A stretch of 64,000 bases of DNA from Shigella phage Sf14, in the sequence record MF327003; one strand, given 5' to 3'. Below, piece by piece: positions 18,619-64,000 of the stretch; the first letter of the stretch is position 1, and every line of letters starts with the position of its first letter. A program made the translations under genes and the position numbers. Below the pieces are notes generated by a model. That model was not told where the DNA came from and made no database searches. It saw nothing but the letters and a program-made list of their open reading frames with translations.

Positions 18619-18813
18619 ATGCCAACCATTCTAGCAATCCTCATGAAAAACCTTGGGGCATTCTTTTGGAAGCTTCTTTTTTCTCTTCTCAGTGAATACA
18701 TGATTGAAAAAGTGTTCTTTAAGCTTGCAAGATACCTTGCGAGTAAAACAGATACACCTATTGATGATGAATTTGTAGATACCTTGGAAAAGGCTTTTAA
18801 AGGTGAGAAATAA
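18619..18813 (+). CDS. small hydrophobic protein (holin-like candidate)
   Basis: 64 aa, hydrophobic N-terminal half, AAGGTGA RBS. Confidence 0.3.
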   Translation: MPTILAILMKNLGAFFWKLLFSLLSEYMIEKVFFKLARYLASKTDTPIDDEFVDTLEKAFKGEK

Positions 18814-19187
18814 TGAAGTGGCTTGAAGATGCTTTTAAGAATAATATTGGTGCAATCGTTGTAGGTATTTTCAGTGTAATTGGTATGTACACTACAATGC
18901 AGGTCTCTGATGGTAAACAGGAAGTGTCTATCACAAATAAGTTACAGCAGTTGGATGGTTACTCAAAAGGTAACTATTCAGCTATTCGTGACTTACAATC
19001 TGATATGAAGCTCCTACAATTAGGGATGGAGAACCAGAAAGTTCAGCTAGAGAATGTTAAGGGAGAAAACGCTAAGTTGACTAAGACCCTTGATAAGTTC
19101 TCTGACAGTGTTAACAACTTAGCACAATCTGTATCAGCTTTGCAAGCAATTACAGAACAAAATACCCAAAGCACTAAAAAGAAATAA
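18813..19187 (+). CDS. membrane-anchored coiled-coil protein
   Basis: 124 aa, one N-terminal TM segment (IGAIVVGIFSVIGMY) then coiled-coil; ATGA overlap with upstream gene. Confidence 0.3.
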   Translation: MKWLEDAFKNNIGAIVVGIFSVIGMYTTMQVSDGKQEVSITNKLQQLDGYSKGNYSAIRDLQSDMKLLQLGMENQKVQLENVKGENAKLTKTLDKFSDSVNNLAQSVSALQAITEQNTQSTKKK

Positions 19188-54262: not shown

Positions 54263-54278
54263 TAAGTAAATTCCTAAA

Positions 54279-54304
54279 GGGGCTGCTTCGGCAGCCTTTT
54301 TTAT
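54279..54304 (+). terminator. intrinsic terminator
   Basis: GGGGCTGC-TTCG-GCAGCC followed by TTTTTTATTT. Confidence 0.7.
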
Positions 54305-54332
54305 TTGAAAAATGTGCAGGTTAGTGTATAAT
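54305..54332 (+). promoter_or_regulatory. near-consensus sigma70 promoter TTGAAA-16-TATAAT
   Basis: TTGAAA 54305-54310, TATAAT 54327-54332; spacer contains TGTGCAGGT, the same 9-mer that recurs in the 58.9-kb repeat array. Confidence 0.6.
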
Positions 54333-54363
54333 TGTCTGCATGTTTAACAAAATAGGAGTGCAA

Positions 54364-54912
54364 ATGAAGAAATTTGTTTTAGGTTTGTGCTTATTCTTTA
54401 CAGCACATTTAGCTACAGCATCTGACTGTCCAGAGCTTACAATCAGCCAGAAAGTTAATATGTTAAAAGCATATAACTATGGCGAAGGACAGATGGGAAA
54501 AGGTTGGGGAATCCCTTTAGCAGCTATAGCCTTACAAGAGTCACAATTAGGTGTCATGTTAGAAAATAAAAAGACTCATGATTATGGTGTTTTCCAGAAT
54601 CACTTGAAGACTGTTGTAAAGCGTAACAAGGTATCTCCAAAGGTTGCTAAGAAGAAGCTAGTAAGTGACTTCCATTACTCAGCGAAAGAGGCTCATAAGG
54701 AGCTATTATTCTGGACTAAGGTTCATGGTAACCCAGATGGAAAGTACTCTATGAAGCGTGTCCTAGCTTCTTATAATGCTGGTTACAAATACAAGATTCC
54801 AAAGGCTAGACAATACTCTCAAGATGTGTACAATAACATGAAACTGCTGGCTCAATGTGAGTTTGCAACAAACATTAAAAAGGTAAAATATGAGCGAATC
54901 AAAACAATTTGA
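54364..54912 (+). CDS. lytic transglycosylase (SLT domain) with N-terminal signal peptide; endolysin candidate
   Basis: AGGAG RBS; signal peptide MKKFVLGLCLFFTAHLATA; SLT motifs ALQESQLG, GVFQ, SYNAG. Confidence 0.5.
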   Translation: MKKFVLGLCLFFTAHLATASDCPELTISQKVNMLKAYNYGEGQMGKGWGIPLAAIALQESQLGVMLENKKTHDYGVFQNHLKTVVKRNKVSPKVAKKKLVSDFHYSAKEAHKELLFWTKVHGNPDGKYSMKRVLASYNAGYKYKIPKARQYSQDVYNNMKLLAQCEFATNIKKVKYERIKTI

Positions 54913-55585
54913 TATGGTTCTGTGTCATGCTTATGATATTAAGCCACTTGATTTAGATATCAGTTCTGCAAGTTGGTCAGATATTGCTAGAGCTGACTTT
55001 GCAGATACAGCAAGAAATGTTATATGTAGTTTTGAAGACTTTCATTCAACAAAGACACAGATTCCTTGTCAGGATTTGCTAACAGGTAAAACTGTATATG
55101 TTGGTCGTAACAGCCTTATCTTGGTTGCAAAGAACTTGGAAGAAAAACGTAAAATGGTCTTAGCAGACATTGACGGTGTTCTTACAAGCTTTAATAAGGA
55201 GCTTAATGCAACTCTGCTAACTGATGGTACTTACTCACAGTACACTGATTTGGTAGAATCTTGCAGAGCTAAACCAACATATGTTTTTAACATTCTGTGT
55301 GGTATATCAAGAAATGCTGATATAGGATTCTTAACTGCTCGTGGTGAATCACAAAGAGTTGTCACACATCTTTTCCTGAATGAGAATGTAGACAGTGATT
55401 TCCTACTGTTTATGCGTGGATTTGGTGACAATGAGATTAGTGCAGAAAGTTTGAAAGTTCGTATGCTTCAGTCTTGCATTCTACCTTACTATGATGTAGT
55501 ATGCTTTATAGAAGATACAGTGAAGAACGTGGAGAAGGTTGAAAGAATCTTACCACACATCAAAACAATGCTTGTTAAAAACTGA
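54890..55585 (+). CDS. hypothetical protein, possible HAD-like hydrolase
   Basis: LADIDGVLT resembles HAD motif I (DxDGx). Confidence 0.25.
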   Translation: MSESKQFDMVLCHAYDIKPLDLDISSASWSDIARADFADTARNVICSFEDFHSTKTQIPCQDLLTGKTVYVGRNSLILVAKNLEEKRKMVLADIDGVLTSFNKELNATLLTDGTYSQYTDLVESCRAKPTYVFNILCGISRNADIGFLTARGESQRVVTHLFLNENVDSDFLLFMRGFGDNEISAESLKVRMLQSCILPYYDVVCFIEDTVKNVEKVERILPHIKTMLVKN

Positions 55586-55596
55586 GAGAGTAAACC

Positions 55597-56058
55597 ATGC
55601 AAAACATTATTACAGTAGCTATCGATGCTTCCGGTAACAAATCACAGGTAGTTCGTGAGATTATCAAAAGTAATTTCGATGGTAAAATCTTTCGTGCAGT
55701 AAACGTGAAAGCTGATGGTAACATTCGTGAGTATCGTGCAATGTTGAATGTTACAAAACACGTTAAGGGTGTTGGTTCAACTACTGCTCATAAAGAAAAT
55801 CTGATGACTATCTATGATATGGGTATGGCTTCAGAGTTAGGTGCAAAAGGGATTGTGCAATCCGGTGCTCCTTACCGTTCTTTCAATCTGGAAACTGCTC
55901 TTATGCTTTCCTTTACAAGTGGTTCTCAAACTACCACTTACCTCTTCACAGATACTGCAACGGTTTCTGCGATTAAGGACAATACCATTAAGGCTGGCGT
56001 AGCTGCTGCTTCAAAAGCCTCAACAACGGGAGCCTTTTTCATTTCTAGGAGAAGTTAA
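55597..56058 (+). CDS. hypothetical protein
   Basis: 153 aa ORF with GAGAGAG RBS. Confidence 0.3.
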   Translation: MQNIITVAIDASGNKSQVVREIIKSNFDGKIFRAVNVKADGNIREYRAMLNVTKHVKGVGSTTAHKENLMTIYDMGMASELGAKGIVQSGAPYRSFNLETALMLSFTSGSQTTTYLFTDTATVSAIKDNTIKAGVAAASKASTTGAFFISRRS

Positions 56059-56406
56059 ATGACGTTTAAAGAATTTTGTCAAGCAGCTTTTGTAATCATT
56101 TTCTTAACAGGTGTTGGTGCTTGGGGAGGCTACACTTACAAGACCAGCCAAGTTAATGAAAAGGAGCTAACTAACCAGAAACTGGTAAGTGTTGCTAAAG
56201 ATGCTTATCAAGAAGGTTTATCAAATCTTAGCTCCAATTACAAAAATGATTTGAAAGATGTGCTTGCTAAAAACAAACACACCAAAGAGGTATTGAACTA
56301 TGAAAAAACTAAGACAGTCTTTATTAATGATTGTGCTACTGAGCCTTATGTCAGGGTGTTCAACGAGCAAAGTGAGCAGTACCTTCAAAAACTCCCAAGT
56401 AAGTGA
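56059..56406 (+). CDS. i-spanin candidate (Rz-like)
   Basis: N-terminal TM helix (AAFVIIFLTGVGAWGGY) then coiled-coil periplasmic domain; contains embedded lipoprotein ORF. Confidence 0.5.
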   Translation: MTFKEFCQAAFVIIFLTGVGAWGGYTYKTSQVNEKELTNQKLVSVAKDAYQEGLSNLSSNYKNDLKDVLAKNKHTKEVLNYEKTKTVFINDCATEPYVRVFNEQSEQYLQKLPSK

Positions 56407-56566
56407 GAGTGACAAGTATACTCAAGAAGAAGCACGTTATGAGGTTAAAGGCACTAAAGGTGAAGACCTTGCAAGTGCTCTTGAGTTTTATCGTGATGGT
56501 TACTATGAATGTACTATTAAGGCAAACAATTTAATTGATATGATTTTGTTAGGGAATAAGCAGTAA
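56300..56566 (+). CDS. o-spanin candidate (Rz1-like lipoprotein), overlapped with i-spanin gene
   Basis: Starts inside 56059..56406 in another frame; lipoprotein signal MKKLRQSLLMIVLLSLMSGC; AAAGAGG RBS. Confidence 0.5.
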   Translation: MKKLRQSLLMIVLLSLMSGCSTSKVSSTFKNSQVSESDKYTQEEARYEVKGTKGEDLASALEFYRDGYYECTIKANNLIDMILLGNKQ

Positions 56567-57862: not shown

Positions 57863-58055
57863 TTTCTGCACTAAGTGTTCTGTTGAGATGTTTGGAAAAG
57901 ACACAGGGGACTTAAAAGGCCTCTTTACAAAAGCAGAGTTTGAAGCTGGTTCAGCAATGCCAGTAATCTGTGAAGGTTGTGGTGCTTTATGGGTAGACCA
58001 TGAAGGTAACCGAGTTAAACCATCTGAAGATAACGAACGTTGGGAGCATTACTAA
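57855..58055 (+). CDS. small zinc-binding protein
   Basis: CTKC...CEGC cysteine pairs; 66 aa. Confidence 0.3.
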   Translation: MADFCTKCSVEMFGKDTGDLKGLFTKAEFEAGSAMPVICEGCGALWVDHEGNRVKPSEDNERWEHY

Positions 58056-58056
58056 T

Positions 58057-58851
58057 ATGGGTATCGTAAAAATTATTAAAGGTGATATCTTTAAAGACTT
58101 TGATGGTAAGAAATTTGATATCATTGGTCACGGTTGTAACTGCATGAACTTGATGGGTGCAGGTATCGCAGCAACAATTGCCAAACGTTACCCAAAAGCT
58201 TATGAAACTGACGCTGAAGTTTATGCTACAGTAGGTGGTGAAAATCATAACCCTAAGCATCTAATGCTTGGTAACATCTCTGTAGCACGTTTTAAGCAGG
58301 GTCGAATTGCTAACCTTTACACTCAGGTTATCACTGGCAAAGATGCACGATACAACGCCTTAGAAGCAGCTTTACAGCGTCTTAACAACTACTGTAAAGT
58401 TAATCAACTTAAGAAAGTTGGGCTTCCGATGATTGGTGCAGGGATTGGTGGTCTTGATAGCATGGCTGTGCTGTCCATTATCAACCAGACTATGAAGGAT
58501 GTTGACGTTTATATGTATGTCTATGAAGATAAGATGTACAGTCAGTTGACTAGTCCTGTTACTGGTTGGGAGAACTTCAGTGAGCCTCAATACTTTGATG
58601 GTGTTGCTGTGGTAGGCAAGGATAAAGTTACCCTCAAGGTGAAGCGTAATGGCAAGGTACACACCAGTTACCCTCCGGTTGAGAAGTACAATCGAAGTAA
58701 CGCTCAAGTTACCCACCCGTTACAAGGCCACCACCACAGAGCGGTAACGTTTGGCGATGATGCAAGTGTATATATCAATGCGACTACAGAAGAGTTTGCA
58801 GAAGATTATATCACACATGAAAACGTAAACTATGTTGAAGCACGTAACTAA
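58057..58851 (+). CDS. macro domain (ADP-ribose binding/processing) protein
   Basis: IIKGDIF...DIIGHGCNCMNLMGAGIAATI resembles the macro-domain GDIT...NAAN...GGGVAGAI core. Confidence 0.5.
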   Translation: MGIVKIIKGDIFKDFDGKKFDIIGHGCNCMNLMGAGIAATIAKRYPKAYETDAEVYATVGGENHNPKHLMLGNISVARFKQGRIANLYTQVITGKDARYNALEAALQRLNNYCKVNQLKKVGLPMIGAGIGGLDSMAVLSIINQTMKDVDVYMYVYEDKMYSQLTSPVTGWENFSEPQYFDGVAVVGKDKVTLKVKRNGKVHTSYPPVEKYNRSNAQVTHPLQGHHHRAVTFGDDASVYINATTEEFAEDYITHENVNYVEARN

Positions 58852-59573: not shown

Positions 59574-59735
59574 ATGATTAAAGAAAGCGATGTAATACAA
59601 TACAAAGATTTAGACGGATACCCAAAAATTGGTAAAGTCTTCTATCTCTATAAGTCTGCTATGGGTAATGATTGTATAGCCCTTACCAATGGCGACAAAA
59701 TAACCATGAAATATTTTATAAAAATTATTGCATAA
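59574..59735 (+). CDS. early small protein (53 aa)
   Basis: ATG with AAAAGG RBS; track ORF begins upstream at non-ATG. Confidence 0.3.
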   Translation: MIKESDVIQYKDLDGYPKIGKVFYLYKSAMGNDCIALTNGDKITMKYFIKIIA

Positions 59736-59740
59736 AGTGC

Positions 59741-59819
59741 TTTACATGGGGTTTAAAATCTAGTATCTTAAGCCCCAGATAAAGAGCTTTACAAACAATC
59801 CTAAACTGGAGAATCTAAA
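59741..59819 (+). promoter_or_regulatory. type 2 promoter/leader cassette (TTTACA-17-TATCTT with embedded hairpin, then conserved leader)
   Basis: TTTACATGGGGTTTAAAATCTAGTATCTTAAGCCCCAGATAAAGAGCTTTACAAACAATCCTAAACTGGAGAATCTAAAA; repeated at 4 other sites. Confidence 0.45.
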
Positions 59820-60116
59820 ATGTTTATTGCCGCAAACGTTAGAACTAAATTAAGCCAGCTATTAAGTAATATCCAATTCATTGAATCTATGCGCCGTACA
59901 TCTGAAGCCGTAGAGTGGTATCATGGAAAGATTAACAAAAAGGAAGTAATAATTTGTGTATGGAACTTTTGTAAAGAATACAAAAAACCATTGCTTCAGG
60001 TTGATATCTATGATAACACTAATAAGTCATCGATTAAGACCACTAGAGATATGGTTGATTCATATGAAATTAGTCACACTGGTAAACTATTCCACAAAGG
60101 TAAAAACAAATGTTAA
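59820..60116 (+). CDS. early small protein
   Basis: 98 aa behind type 2 cassette. Confidence 0.4.
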   Translation: MFIAANVRTKLSQLLSNIQFIESMRRTSEAVEWYHGKINKKEVIICVWNFCKEYKKPLLQVDIYDNTNKSSIKTTRDMVDSYEISHTGKLFHKGKNKC

Positions 60117-60457
60117 TCACATACGTTGCAATTTTTATCTCTATTGTGGCGCTCTATAAAGCCTTACAAGCGCACAGTATAGCTAATAAGGCACTTACAA
60201 GGGATTTAAAAATAAACCTTGTACGGGGCTTTTTAGAGCGTTTAAGCTTAGAACAATTGAAACGCTTAGAGATGAGCTTTCGATTCAAAGCAGAAACATA
60301 CCGGATTGATAACATCCTAGACGGTGATTTTAAATTAATCAGTGATTATGACATACTTCTTGAGTCAATTCAAGATATAAACCTGAAAGATTATTATATC
60401 GTGATAGCGCAAGAAATTAATAAAAAAGAGCTTGCAATGCAGAATCAAAACAAGTAA
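60110..60457 (+). CDS. early small membrane protein
   Basis: N-terminal TM helix (ITYVAIFISIVALY); 115 aa. Confidence 0.35.
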   Translation: MLITYVAIFISIVALYKALQAHSIANKALTRDLKINLVRGFLERLSLEQLKRLEMSFRFKAETYRIDNILDGDFKLISDYDILLESIQDINLKDYYIVIAQEINKKELAMQNQNK

Positions 60458-60516: not shown

Positions 60517-60789
60517 ATGTATACTACTAATGACGGTCGAACTTTGAACGTAACTTTAAAACACTATATAGACGGTGTATTAAACTTTGAAGAGTTAAGA
60601 GCAGAACAGCACCTATTAGATTGGCAAGTAGCAGGTTTACAAAAAACCGCCACAGGATATGGAAAGAAAATTCCTACATCTTGGAAAGTTCGATACCTTG
60701 GAAAGTTACGCAGAATTTATCAAGATGTTTATAGTAATAGCGGTGTAAGTTACATTATTGTTAGCGGTAAAAAATTGTATTTAGTCTAA
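60517..60789 (+). CDS. early small protein
   Basis: 90 aa behind type 1 cassette. Confidence 0.4.
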   Translation: MYTTNDGRTLNVTLKHYIDGVLNFEELRAEQHLLDWQVAGLQKTATGYGKKIPTSWKVRYLGKLRRIYQDVYSNSGVSYIIVSGKKLYLV

Positions 60790-60797
60790 TAAATTGC

Positions 60798-60879
60798 TTT
60801 ACATGGGGTTTATAGTTAGATAAGATAAGCCCCAGATAAAGAGATTTATCTAAAACTAACCTAAACTGGAGTATCAAAA
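60798..60879 (+). promoter_or_regulatory. type 2 promoter/leader cassette (variant)
   Basis: TTTACATGGGGTTTATAGTTAGATAAGATAAGCCCCAGATAAAGAG...CCTAAACTGGAGTATCAAAAATG. Confidence 0.4.
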
Positions 60880-61372: not shown

Positions 61373-61621
61373 ATGTTTAATATGTTGAATATCCCTGACA
61401 CTTGCCGACTCTTAACACAATTTGATAACCTTGGCAAGCCGTTTTTATATCATATGCCAGATAACACTGCAAAAACTTACAGTTACATTGTAAACCGTTT
61501 TACGGCTTATGGTTCAAAGTATGGCTATAATGTCAAGACTCAAAAAGTGACTTTGTTCACAAGTATTGAAGAGTTACCAACTGTTGCCGTTAAACTAATC
61601 TTTACAAAGAAAACTAAATAA
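61373..61621 (+). CDS. early small protein
   Basis: 82 aa. Confidence 0.4.
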   Translation: MFNMLNIPDTCRLLTQFDNLGKPFLYHMPDNTAKTYSYIVNRFTAYGSKYGYNVKTQKVTLFTSIEELPTVAVKLIFTKKTK

Positions 61622-61626
61622 AGTCC

Positions 61627-61705
61627 TTTACATGGGGTTTAAAAGCTAGTATCTTAAGCCCCAGATAAAGAGCTTTACCAACAATCCTAAACTGGAGAAT
61701 CTAAA
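61627..61705 (+). promoter_or_regulatory. type 2 promoter/leader cassette
   Basis: TTTACATGGGGTTTAAAAGCTAGTATCTTAAGCCCCAGATAAAGAGCTTTACCAACAATCCTAAACTGGAGAATCTAAAATG. Confidence 0.45.
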
Positions 61706-62263
61706 ATGAAATGCTTCCACGGTACTACACAAGAAAACTTTGTAAACCTTATTAATGGCGGTGATAAACCATCAGGAGTCTGGAATTGCTCTGATATGGA
61801 TGGATGTTTTTATGTCTACCCTGTTAGCAAGTTCTATGATGTAGAAAATCTGGATGACGAACAAATCATAGATGAAGGTATTAAAAACGCGCTTGATAGC
61901 GCAAGCATTACAGCAGCCTATCAAATGAAGTCACAAAAGCTTGTTATCTTGGAACTGGATATTCCAGAAGATGATTTACAAGATGACTGGAGCTGTGAGA
62001 ACATGAGCGACGTAGCAAGCTTTACAGAATATTTCGATAAAGAATGGATTAAAAAGGTTTACACAACTGAATTTAATGCTATGTATGCGCCTTTCTTTGT
62101 CCCTAACCTGAATAATAGGAACTTGGGTTATATACCAGATGAATTACGCAACATTGCGGCAATAGTCCAACGTAGTGATGAGATGAGCAATGTATATTGT
62201 GATATCTTTGACACAATGCAATTCAACGTAACAGAAACGGCTATAAACGACTTAACAGCATAA
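61706..62263 (+). CDS. early protein, unknown
   Basis: 185 aa, acidic. Confidence 0.4.
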   Translation: MKCFHGTTQENFVNLINGGDKPSGVWNCSDMDGCFYVYPVSKFYDVENLDDEQIIDEGIKNALDSASITAAYQMKSQKLVILELDIPEDDLQDDWSCENMSDVASFTEYFDKEWIKKVYTTEFNAMYAPFFVPNLNNRNLGYIPDELRNIAAIVQRSDEMSNVYCDIFDTMQFNVTETAINDLTA

Positions 62264-62646: not shown

Positions 62647-62868
62647 ATGTTGCAAGTTCTTAACGTAAAAACCATTGATTTTAAATTCTCAAATGTTCGT
62701 CGTACCTATTTACAGCCATTTAATAACCCTGTTAGAATTCCCAACGATGACGCTAAAAAGTTGATTGATGAAATTCTAGCTAATGGCGGTTATCTGGCTA
62801 GTCATAAGCAGTATAATGATGAGGCTGGAAGCCTGATAAATGAGTTTACATATTATTACTACAAATAA
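62647..62868 (+). CDS. early small protein
   Basis: 73 aa. Confidence 0.4.
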   Translation: MLQVLNVKTIDFKFSNVRRTYLQPFNNPVRIPNDDAKKLIDEILANGGYLASHKQYNDEAGSLINEFTYYYYK

Positions 62869-62880
62869 CTAATAAAGTCC

Positions 62881-62959
62881 TTTACATGGGGTTTATAGTT
62901 AGATAAGATAAGCCCCAGATAAAGAGCTTTACCAACAATCCTAAACTGGAGAATCTAAA
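62881..62959 (+). promoter_or_regulatory. type 2 promoter/leader cassette
   Basis: Same element as at 60798 and 61627. Confidence 0.45.
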
Positions 62960-63157
62960 ATGTTATCACTGATGCAAAAACTTTCTACCTTGTGGTGTTT
63001 AAAAGGTGTAGAGTGTAACCTTAACATGGAAGGTTCAAAGATAGACCTAAAAATAGTATACAATGGAGAAATACTATTCTCACAGAATAGCAGTCATCCA
63101 CACTTCAAAGATAATGCAATTATGGCCGTGAATAATCTGATGGATAGAATTTATTAA
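62960..63157 (+). CDS. early small protein
   Basis: 65 aa. Confidence 0.35.
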   Translation: MLSLMQKLSTLWCLKGVECNLNMEGSKIDLKIVYNGEILFSQNSSHPHFKDNAIMAVNNLMDRIY

Positions 63158-63162
63158 AGTGC

Positions 63163-63242
63163 TTTACATGGGGTTTAAAAGCTAGTATCTTAAGCCCCAG
63201 ATAAAGAGCTTTACCAACAATCCTAAACTGGAGAATCTGAAA
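63163..63242 (+). promoter_or_regulatory. type 2 promoter/leader cassette
   Basis: TTTACATGGGGTTTAAAAGCTAGTATCTTAAGCCCCAGATAAAGAGCTTTACCAACAATCCTAAACTGGAGAATCTGAAAATG. Confidence 0.45.
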
Positions 63243-63584
63243 ATGGCCTATGTAACAATTATCACCGATAAAGAAAATTCGTCATGGTCTACCCAAGTTA
63301 ACGACAAAATGAAACCTATGCAGTGTCTCAAGTACTTTGAGCAATGGAACAGGGGAGAAGATGTAAGCCCCTTTCAAGTGATGCAGATTGTACATGTTGA
63401 CAATGAAGGGAATAAAACTACCCTTAACACTGAATACTATGCTACACGTTTCGAAACTCGCAAATCAGCTATGCAGGAGTTAAGAGAAAAGGGATATAGT
63501 CACATTGCCGCGCTCATTTGGTCTGATTTGCTTAAAAAACAGTCATTAACCTATGTTAAGCCAGAAAAAATCTTTATAAGCTAA
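63243..63584 (+). CDS. early protein, copy 1 of tandemly duplicated gene
   Basis: 113 aa; identical to product of 63659..64000. Confidence 0.45.
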   Translation: MAYVTIITDKENSSWSTQVNDKMKPMQCLKYFEQWNRGEDVSPFQVMQIVHVDNEGNKTTLNTEYYATRFETRKSAMQELREKGYSHIAALIWSDLLKKQSLTYVKPEKIFIS

Positions 63585-63658
63585 TCAACAACTTATAAAA
63601 ATCTTTTGAAAAACAGATAAAGAGCTTTACCAACAATCCTAAACTGGAGAATCTGAAA

Positions 63659-64000
63659 ATGGCCTATGTAACAATTATCACCGATAAAGAAAATTCGTCA
63701 TGGTCTACCCAAGTTAACGACAAAATGAAACCTATGCAGTGTCTCAAGTACTTTGAGCAATGGAACAGGGGAGAAGATGTAAGCCCCTTTCAAGTGATGC
63801 AGATTGTACATGTTGACAATGAAGGGAATAAAACTACCCTTAACACTGAATACTATGCTACACGTTTCGAAACTCGCAAATCAGCTATGCAGGAGTTAAG
63901 AGAAAAGGGATATAGTCACATTGCCGCGCTCATTTGGTCTGATTTGCTTAAAAAACAGTCATTAACCTATGTTAAGCCAGAAAAAATCTTTATAAGCTAA
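63659..64000 (+). CDS. early protein, copy 2 of tandemly duplicated gene
   Basis: Translation identical to 63243..63584; stop codon is the last 3 bases of the window. Confidence 0.45.
   Translation: MAYVTIITDKENSSWSTQVNDKMKPMQCLKYFEQWNRGEDVSPFQVMQIVHVDNEGNKTTLNTEYYATRFETRKSAMQELREKGYSHIAALIWSDLLKKQSLTYVKPEKIFIS

Follow-up and report, generated by a model that had tools for sequence, protein, structure and literature searches.

A predicted exported Vs.1-family murein glycosidase and an overlapped spanin pair encoded downstream of rIIA-rIIB in Shigella phage Sf14

We analysed a 64,000-nt stretch of the genome of Shigella phage Sf14 (sequence record MF327003; hereafter, the window) with respect to a segment at 54305-56566, in which an earlier note had seen a lysis-like cassette made up of a gene for a secreted SLT-domain protein (here, the SLT protein) and a pair of spanin genes. 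We consider it likely that this locus comprises two functionally separate, previously annotated units within the early/middle gene block that follows rIIA-rIIB: (i) an exported member of the T4 Vs.1 family that acts as an accessory murein glycosidase and not as an endolysin; and (ii) an overlapped spanin pair. The cassette description stood insofar as the spanins are real lysis genes; it did not stand as a self-contained cassette with the SLT protein as its endolysin, given that a GH24 lysozyme and a holin are encoded elsewhere in the closest relative, Shigella phage Sf16. More specifically, a cassette is unsupported because a HAD phosphatase gene and a gp116-like gene separate the SLT gene from the spanins, and because a divergent relative (L006) keeps the SLT gene after rIIB without a spanin in the following 5.2 kb of contig. 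The identification of these genes is already known: the spanins have been catalogued, the "lysozyme-like" open reading frame (ORF) has been flagged, and kinship with T4 Vs.1 is stated in the Felix O1 record. Feature coordinates are collected in Table 1.

By sequence comparison, the SLT protein is a homologue of T4 Vs.1, with which it shares 33% identity over 167 aa (BLASTP, E 2e-14). By tblastn, 1,927 of 50,697 phage records contained a homologue. T4-like phages of Escherichia, Klebsiella, Vibrio, Aeromonas, and Acinetobacter are among them, with the annotation "vs.1 conserved transglycosylase SLT domain protein," and so is Kuttervirus (Ackermannviridae). The protein also matched phrog_600 ("unknown function") at E 4e-57, and the Felix O1 homologue, ORF3, is labeled "hypothetical 20.7 KD protein in vs-regB intergenic region" in RefSeq. 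An exhaustive profile search retrieved 623 metagenomic clusters at E <=0.001, most of them 160-200 aa long and matched over their full length. The Pfam SLT model (PF01464) was matched at E <=0.01 by 39 of 54 family members, the best of them at 3.1e-9. A search of PDB sequences with the SLT protein as single query returned noise only; the 54-sequence family profile retrieved EtgA (8urn) at E 4.6e-5, followed by C-type lysozymes. An AlphaFold2 model computed with ten homologues (mean predicted local distance difference test score [pLDDT] 78, predicted template-modelling score 0.74) reached a pLDDT of ~88-94 over most of residues 30-160. It displays the alpha-helical fold of goose lysozyme and SLT domains, and its top Foldseek matches are lytic transglycosylases. 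Neither T4 Vs.1 nor the SLT protein had a model in NCBIfam, and the same was true of the i-spanin, the phosphatase, and the gp116-like protein.

The catalytic residues of this fold are under selection. In an alignment of 166 sequences, E59, Y137, and Y151 are invariant (166/166), and S60 (161/166), G75 (160/166), N138 (154/166), and G140 (165/166) are nearly so; the motifs ES (E59-S60), DYGVFQ, and SYNAG, which the earlier note had listed as ES, GVFQ, and SYNAG, are both present and conserved. EtgA is reported to be a "hybrid" between a muramidase and a lytic transglycosylase; its active site comprises E42, D60, Q65, Y116, N117, G119, and Y133 (PMC10880428). Asp73 of the SLT protein, located in the D-Y-G-V-F-Q motif, aligns with D52 of hen lysozyme, and its spacing to the Gln equals that of D60-Q65 in EtgA. 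The SLT protein, a small and apparently exported SLT-like domain, therefore has an active site of the EtgA type, made up of Glu, Asp-x4-Gln, Y-N-x-G, and a distal Tyr. All Ounavirinae and, in total, 38% of the family have this Asp, and Ser or Ala (Ala in T4 Vs.1) takes its place elsewhere. From these features, we infer that the SLT protein is a murein glycosidase, either a hydrolase or a lytic transglycosylase.

At the N-terminus of the SLT protein, MKKFVLGLCLFFTAHLATA followed by SD, a basic n-region leads into a hydrophobic core that closes with an A-x-A end, in keeping with the cleavable-looking signal peptide reported earlier; inspection by eye and hydrophobicity both place a signal-like segment here. 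A hydrophobic signal-like segment stands at the N-terminus of 148 of 164 full-length family members, T4 Vs.1 and the SLT protein among them; the segments are highly variable in sequence and mostly end in AxA-type sites. A loose lipobox pattern was seen in eight Vs.1-family members, most clearly in P0016 (LLSA/C). The SLT protein is thus probably exported by Sec and cut after Ala19, which would yield an 18.7-kDa basic periplasmic protein. Moreover, Cys22 and Cys165 are invariant among ten closer homologues, and these residues may form a disulfide in the periplasm.

Published expression data place the SLT gene among the early/middle genes. In Felix O1, reverse transcription PCR gave maximal transcript levels at 25 min for ORF3 (SLT protein), ORF4 (phosphatase), and ORF6 (i-spanin), at 10 min for ORFs 2 and 5, and at 60 min for the tail genes; we checked the ORF numbering. 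In T4, Vs.1 is classed as early by RNA and middle by protein, and the spanins PseT.3 and PseT.2 as early/middle (PMC9697503, supplement). Concerning function, Nolan et al. (2006) noted a marginal SLT match for Vs.1 and suggested "some role in cell lysis" (PMC1524935); the literature that we searched gave no function for the Vs.1 family beyond this one comparative-genomics remark. Taking fold, active site, export signal, and timing together, we regard an accessory periplasmic murein glycosidase, acting neither as endolysin nor as virion enzyme, as the most likely identity of the SLT protein. Its accessory function would be a limited, non-lethal remodelling or weakening of the wall.

An alternative is that the SLT protein takes no part in lysis itself and is a periplasmic exclusion, competition, or envelope-conditioning factor, which would change the wall of the infected cell by cutting murein and might thereby hinder superinfection, tune the timing of lysis, or allow cell enlargement. 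Early/middle expression and the predicted periplasmic location are compatible with such a role, as are the conservation of the gene directly after rIIA/rIIB, which in T4 are linked to exclusion and envelope phenotypes, and the occurrence of the known phage homologues in large virulent myophages (Straboviridae, Ounavirinae, Ackermannviridae). However, adjacency to the rII genes is not kept in T4 and Kuttervirus, and the universal catalytic Glu shows only that catalysis matters, not what it is for. We hold this alternative to be unlikely.

The earlier note had raised a signal-dependent endolysin as one possibility. In a fuller form of this view, an endolysin exported by Sec (like Lys44 of Oenococcus phage fOg44 or the signal-arrest-release [SAR] endolysins) would accumulate in the periplasm and, together with the spanins, lyse the cell as a self-contained, holin-independent module. 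The combination of an export signal with an intact predicted muralytic active site speaks for it, as do the location of the spanins ~1.1 kb downstream of the SLT gene in Felixounavirus, Mooglevirus, and a metagenomic relative (L007), the deletion in this genome of the terminator between the SLT operon and the spanins (see below), and the label "putative lysin" in some database records. Against it stand the canonical GH24 lysozyme and holin encoded elsewhere in Sf16, early/middle instead of late expression, and an h-region that resembles a signal peptide with an AxA site and not a Gly/Ala-rich SAR helix. Furthermore, no annotated lysis gene flanks the SLT homologue in L006 or in Kuttervirus SS9, and T4 vs.1, which lies between regB and vs, is 4.2 kb from the endolysin gene e. 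T4 Vs.1 coexists with gpe, and e mutants of T4 do not lyse despite their intact vs.1; therefore, Vs.1 cannot replace the endolysin in T4. A principal endolysin gene standing beside a holin gene is likewise not what we found for the SLT protein. Taken together, these data make an endolysin quite unlikely.

Our analysis of the remaining lysis genes supports the same conclusion. A hydrophobicity scan of 53.1-58.9 kb (19-residue Kyte-Doolittle mean >1.5) revealed no holin-like small membrane protein, bearing out the statement that no holin is adjacent; the only N-terminal hydrophobic segments were the SLT signal and those of the two spanins, and a 283-aa macro-domain protein showed one internal stretch at 1.52 that is not holin-like. 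The small membrane-protein candidates previously noted at 18619-19187 do include an exact homologue of the Sf16 holin gp62. This putative holin, which is outside the locus but belongs to the lysis system, carries one transmembrane segment at its N-terminus and, behind it, an extended C-terminal domain that is hydrophilic and polar; its gene comes directly after those for the tail fibres. Mass spectrometry of purified virions has detected the Sf14 homologue of this protein, gp55 ("holin or lysozyme") (PMC11821841, Table 1), and its assignment as the holin of these phages may have to be checked by experiment. In Sf16, the GH24 lysozyme gp24 is encoded beside a tail gene, the holin gp62 after the tail fibres, and the spanins as gp117/118, that is, at three separate loci; the GH24 gene was not found within the window and lies in the part of the genome that the window does not cover. 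Similarly, the Felix O1 lysin gp35 (Phage_lysozyme) has no adjacent holin, "as with coliphage T4" (PMC3185647). Thus, the lysis genes are scattered, as they are in T4.

That the SLT protein is a virion-associated lytic transglycosylase piercing the wall at DNA injection, like T7 gp16 or PRD1 P7, which the earlier note had also considered, is highly improbable, as a Sec-type signal would remove the protein from the cytoplasm, where virions are assembled, its gene belongs to the early/middle block and is distant from the structural genes, and it appears neither among the 17 virion proteins in the published Felix O1 list (PMC3185647) nor in the published Sf14 virion mass-spectrometry table (PMC11821841).

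We regard the two-component spanin pair as genuine and already catalogued, with a predicted role in outer-membrane disruption. The i-spanin matched phrog_1152 ("Rz-like spanin," E 5.5e-38) and is annotated in Sf16, Michonne, and KPS64; its type II anchor, residues 6-24 (FCQAAFVIIFLTGVGAWGG; 19-residue Kyte-Doolittle mean 1.62), is its sole hydrophobic segment. The o-spanin matched phrog_4180 at E 2.8e-48 and, weakly, phrog_456 ("Rz-like spanin," E 0.002). Its N-terminus, MKKLRQSLLMIVLLSLMSG followed by C-S-T, carries the lipobox LMSGC without Asp at +2, as predicted for a lipoprotein. The o-spanin gene overlaps the i-spanin gene by 107 nt and runs 160 nt past its end. The earlier description of a spanin pair ~1.1 kb downstream of the SLT gene was therefore accurate as to the pair and its position and inaccurate in calling it embedded, as the arrangement is overlapped (P2 type) and not of the lambda type. 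A shorter o-spanin start used for Sf16 and KPS64 was rejected since that form would be without a lipobox. The metagenomic relative L007, with an SLT protein ~50% identical to ours, has the same overlapped pair (i-spanin 32% and o-spanin 44% identical), in which the o-spanin lipobox reads ITSGC and one periplasmic Cys per spanin subunit is kept; because lipobox and Cys are conserved, the +1-frame ORF is under selection at the protein level. Kongari et al. (2018) placed Felix01 and Moogle in the "JH2" i- and o-spanin families and Felix01 in the overlapped class (PMC6139136).

Table 1. Features of the SLT-spanin region and the remote putative holin gene (positions refer to the 64,000-nt window)
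Feature	Position	Strand	Remarks
Remote putative holin, 124 aa	18813..19187	+	100% identical to Sf16 gp62 "holin" (tblastn)
Intrinsic terminator after rIIB	54276..54301	+	Core GGCTGC-TTCG-GCAGCC, then T run; annotated in Michonne
Sigma-70-type promoter, TTGAAA-16-TATAAT	54305..54332	+	11/12 consensus positions
Vs.1-family exported peptidoglycan glycosidase (predicted), 182 aa	54364..54912	+	Homologue of Sf16 gp114 and Felix O1 ORF3
Predicted signal peptide of the SLT protein, residues 1-19	54364-54420
Codon of catalytic E59 of the SLT protein	54538-54540
HAD-type phosphatase, annotated "polynucleotide kinase"	54890..55585	+	phrog_3970, E 3.5e-128; overlaps SLT gene by 23 nt
Ounavirinae-specific gp116-like protein	55597..56058	+	Homologue of Sf16 gp116; C-terminus altered by 55-bp deletion
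55-bp deletion junction	56027..56040	+	Relative to Sf16 81958-82012 (pairwise BLAST, sequence comparison)
i-spanin, 115 aa	56059..56406	+	N-terminal transmembrane segment; periplasmic domain with Cys92
o-spanin, 88 aa	56300..56566	+	+1 frame; lipobox LMSG/C20, Ser at +2; Cys71

The segment 54200-56900 matched 256 phage records by megablast, the best being Sf16 (MF158043; 99.9% identity) and the next the Citrobacter phages Michonne and Mordin and the Shigella phages Sf13-Sf19 (97-99%); these relatives belong to Mooglevirus, subfamily Ounavirinae (Felix O1-like myophages). On a larger scale, Sf16 25930-81957 aligned with positions 1-56033 of the window at 99.25% identity, the window crossing the arbitrary ends of the Sf16 record. 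In relatives, GenBank names the genes rIIA, rIIB, "hypothetical / lysozyme-like domain / putative lysin," "polynucleotide kinase," hypothetical, i-spanin, and o-spanin. We compared the gene context at four loci (encoding contigs or annotated records). The order rIIA-rIIB-SLT is kept in Felixounavirus and in metagenomic relatives at 43-52% identity. In these relatives, the HAD phosphatase gene lies directly downstream of the SLT gene, except in L006, where the distance is ~1.9 kb. The 5.2 kb of L006 contig beyond the SLT gene contained no spanin pair. As spanins are absent after the SLT gene in L006 and the SLT gene stands apart from lysis genes in T4 and Kuttervirus, its tie to the spanins is looser than its tie to the early/middle block.

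The SLT gene has its own transcription signals. Its near-consensus promoter, as the earlier note had it, is indeed present; it is intergenic and begins 4 nt past the rIIB terminator. Sites with at least 11/12 consensus positions numbered 9 on both strands of the window versus 2.9 ± 1.9 expected from Markov shuffles, and 4 of these 9 form a cluster in the intergenic regions of rIIA, rIIB, and the SLT gene. In Felixounavirus VpaE1, which belongs to another genus, the -10 hexamer is kept and the -35 is degenerate. The rIIB terminator hairpin folded directly at -15.6 kcal/mol (z -2.36) and is conserved in Mooglevirus and VpaE1; an automated terminator scan had missed it, apparently because stem extension consumed the T tract, and the direct fold confirmed the hairpin. 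As for the start of the gene, ATG 54364 is preceded by AGGAG at 54354-54358, both being conserved in comparison with VpaE1, and the resulting 182-aa form is the one used in all database annotations. We rejected a 190-aa ORF from ATG 54340, as this codon lies only ~7 nt past the -10 hexamer and is ACG in VpaE1; the start previously read at 54340 was corrected accordingly.

Regarding the genes between the SLT gene and the spanins, the HAD phosphatase carries a DIDGV motif and matched Pfam HAD_PNKP over residues 88-216 (E 0.015). Its BLASTP alignment to T4 PseT is confined to PseT residues 158-289, the phosphatase half, with no match to the PseT kinase domain; the name "polynucleotide kinase" thus probably overstates its function. 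Compared with Sf16 and with the 27 phage records that cover this site, the gp116-like gene lacks 55 bp, a deletion shared by no record in the phage collection; the 12 phage records listed for a 101-nt query all matched it in two pieces spanning 156 nt. The deletion changes the C-terminus of the gp116-like protein from ..MAANVLAKVLG to ..TGAFFISRRS. Moreover, Sf16, Michonne, and Mordin have a terminator ahead of the spanin genes (GGCTCC-TTCG-GGAGCC plus T5; annotated in Michonne), the left arm of which is removed by the deletion. Transcription should therefore run on into the spanin genes, and in this genome the Vs.1-like operon and the spanins probably share a transcript. The deletion may be genuine and tie the expression of the spanins to the operon upstream, or it may be a sequence error.

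Several points weigh against our interpretation of the SLT protein as an accessory periplasmic glycosidase. First, its own match to the Pfam SLT model (18.1-18.4 bits, E 0.002) falls below the gathering cutoff of 21.3. Second, cleavage of the signal peptide was called by eye and by a hydrophobicity rule, and a membrane-tethered (SAR-like) form is conceivable. Third, the linkage of SLT gene and spanins that is kept in Felixounavirus, Mooglevirus, and L007 could reflect a shared role in lysis. Fourth, as the lysozyme-type Asp of the Ounavirinae is absent from T4 Vs.1, the genetics of T4 may not transfer. Finally, we found no biochemical or genetic data on any Vs.1-family member in the literature.

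With these points in mind, we propose the following course of events for an accessory Vs.1-like enzyme. Host RNA polymerase would start at ~54339-54341 and produce an mRNA encoding the Vs.1-like enzyme, the HAD phosphatase, and the small gp116-like protein. The exported enzyme would act on murein from the periplasm, from mid-infection onward and well before lysis, cutting the N-acetylmuramic acid (MurNAc)-N-acetylglucosamine (GlcNAc) bond of host murein via Glu59 assisted by Asp73. Its activity would presumably be limited or local, because infected cells do not lyse at mid-infection. Spanins would accumulate in the two membranes, the i-spanin anchored in the inner one and the o-spanin as a lipoprotein in the outer one, so as to bridge the periplasm, and, following the established spanin model, would disrupt the outer membrane last, after the remote holin has released the GH24 endolysin and the murein has been destroyed. 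More broadly, and only tentatively, the Vs.1 family might mark an unrecognised step of infection, that is, deliberate cutting of murein from the periplasm before lysis, in which case the Ounavirinae branch would have converted a lytic-transglycosylase site to a lysozyme-type Glu/Asp site. If so, such cutting might prime the wall for spanins and endolysin, permit cell enlargement, or block superinfection. T4, the best-studied phage, and ~1,900 other phage genomes encode this conserved and expressed protein, an exported, predicted murein-cleaving enzyme. A practical lesson for annotators is to withhold the name endolysin from signal-bearing SLT genes in the vicinity of spanins.

Apart from this locus, the window contains several repeats. 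A 300-nt direct repeat with 100% identity (63198-63497 and 63614-63913, spacing 416 bp) corresponds to a tandem duplication, not present in Sf16 itself, of the sequence at 2409-2824 of Sf16. Five copies of a 70-117-nt intergenic module (59704-59820, 60786-60855, 61590-61706, 62844-62960, and 63126-63242) lie between small early genes, and every copy combines a TTTACA -35-like box with an AAAGAG site and a hairpin of the form GGGG...CCCC. Another module (AACGGGGCAAGATAGAAGCCCC...CTGGAGAATCTGAAAATG) is repeated at 60453 and 61309 and, in partial form (61-64%), at 63179 and 63595. Both modules look like promoter/terminator/ribosome-binding-site cassettes.

Compared with known systems, the SLT protein is closest to T4 Vs.1: the two are of similar length (182 and 181 aa), both begin with a signal-like segment and carry ES...GxFQ...SYN.G motifs, and both genes lie in an early/middle block near a macro-domain phosphatase gene. 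They differ in the Ala that T4 Vs.1 has at the position of Ounavirinae Asp73 (hen lysozyme D52, EtgA D60) and in their neighbours, which are regB and vs in T4 and rIIB and the HAD phosphatase gene here. Unlike the type III secretion system glycosidases EtgA, IagB, and IpgF, the SLT protein is encoded in an early/middle operon of a virulent phage without secretion-system context, and whereas EtgA is targeted and activated by its partner EscI, no comparable partner is known for the SLT protein. With the SAR endolysins (P1 Lyz, phage 21 R) and Lys44 of fOg44, it shares a muralytic domain behind an N-terminal export signal. Those proteins, in contrast, are principal endolysins encoded beside a holin or pinholin, whereas the SLT protein has a separate GH24 endolysin (in Sf16), no adjacent holin, and early/middle expression.

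The spanin pair resembles P2 LysB/LysC in that the o-spanin ORF opens within the i-spanin gene, in the +1 frame, and continues beyond its end, and differs from lambda Rz/Rz1 in that Rz1 is proline-rich whereas the mature o-spanin here is without proline. No sequence similarity of the spanins to T4 PseT.3 and PseT.2 was detectable; the parallel with T4 is therefore organisational instead of sequence-based. In this respect, the T4 spanin genes are separated and those described here overlapped, and the order of pseT.3-pseT.2-pseT.1-pseT is reversed here, the phosphatase gene lying upstream of the spanins and its product being without a kinase domain. As in T4, however, the spanins lie in the early region next to a PseT-like phosphatase gene. 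The segment 50689-58851 as a whole shares with T4 a set of genes comprising rIIA, rIIB, vs.1, a pseT-like phosphatase gene beside the spanins, and a tk.4-like macro-domain phosphatase gene (58000-58851), the T4 counterparts of this early block being regB-vs.1-vs-tk.4 and alc-pseT.3-pseT.2-pseT.1-pseT. Likewise, the scattered T4 lysis genes e, t, and pseT.3/pseT.2 are paralleled by the Sf16 endolysin, holin, and spanins at three loci, with rIIA and rIIB present.

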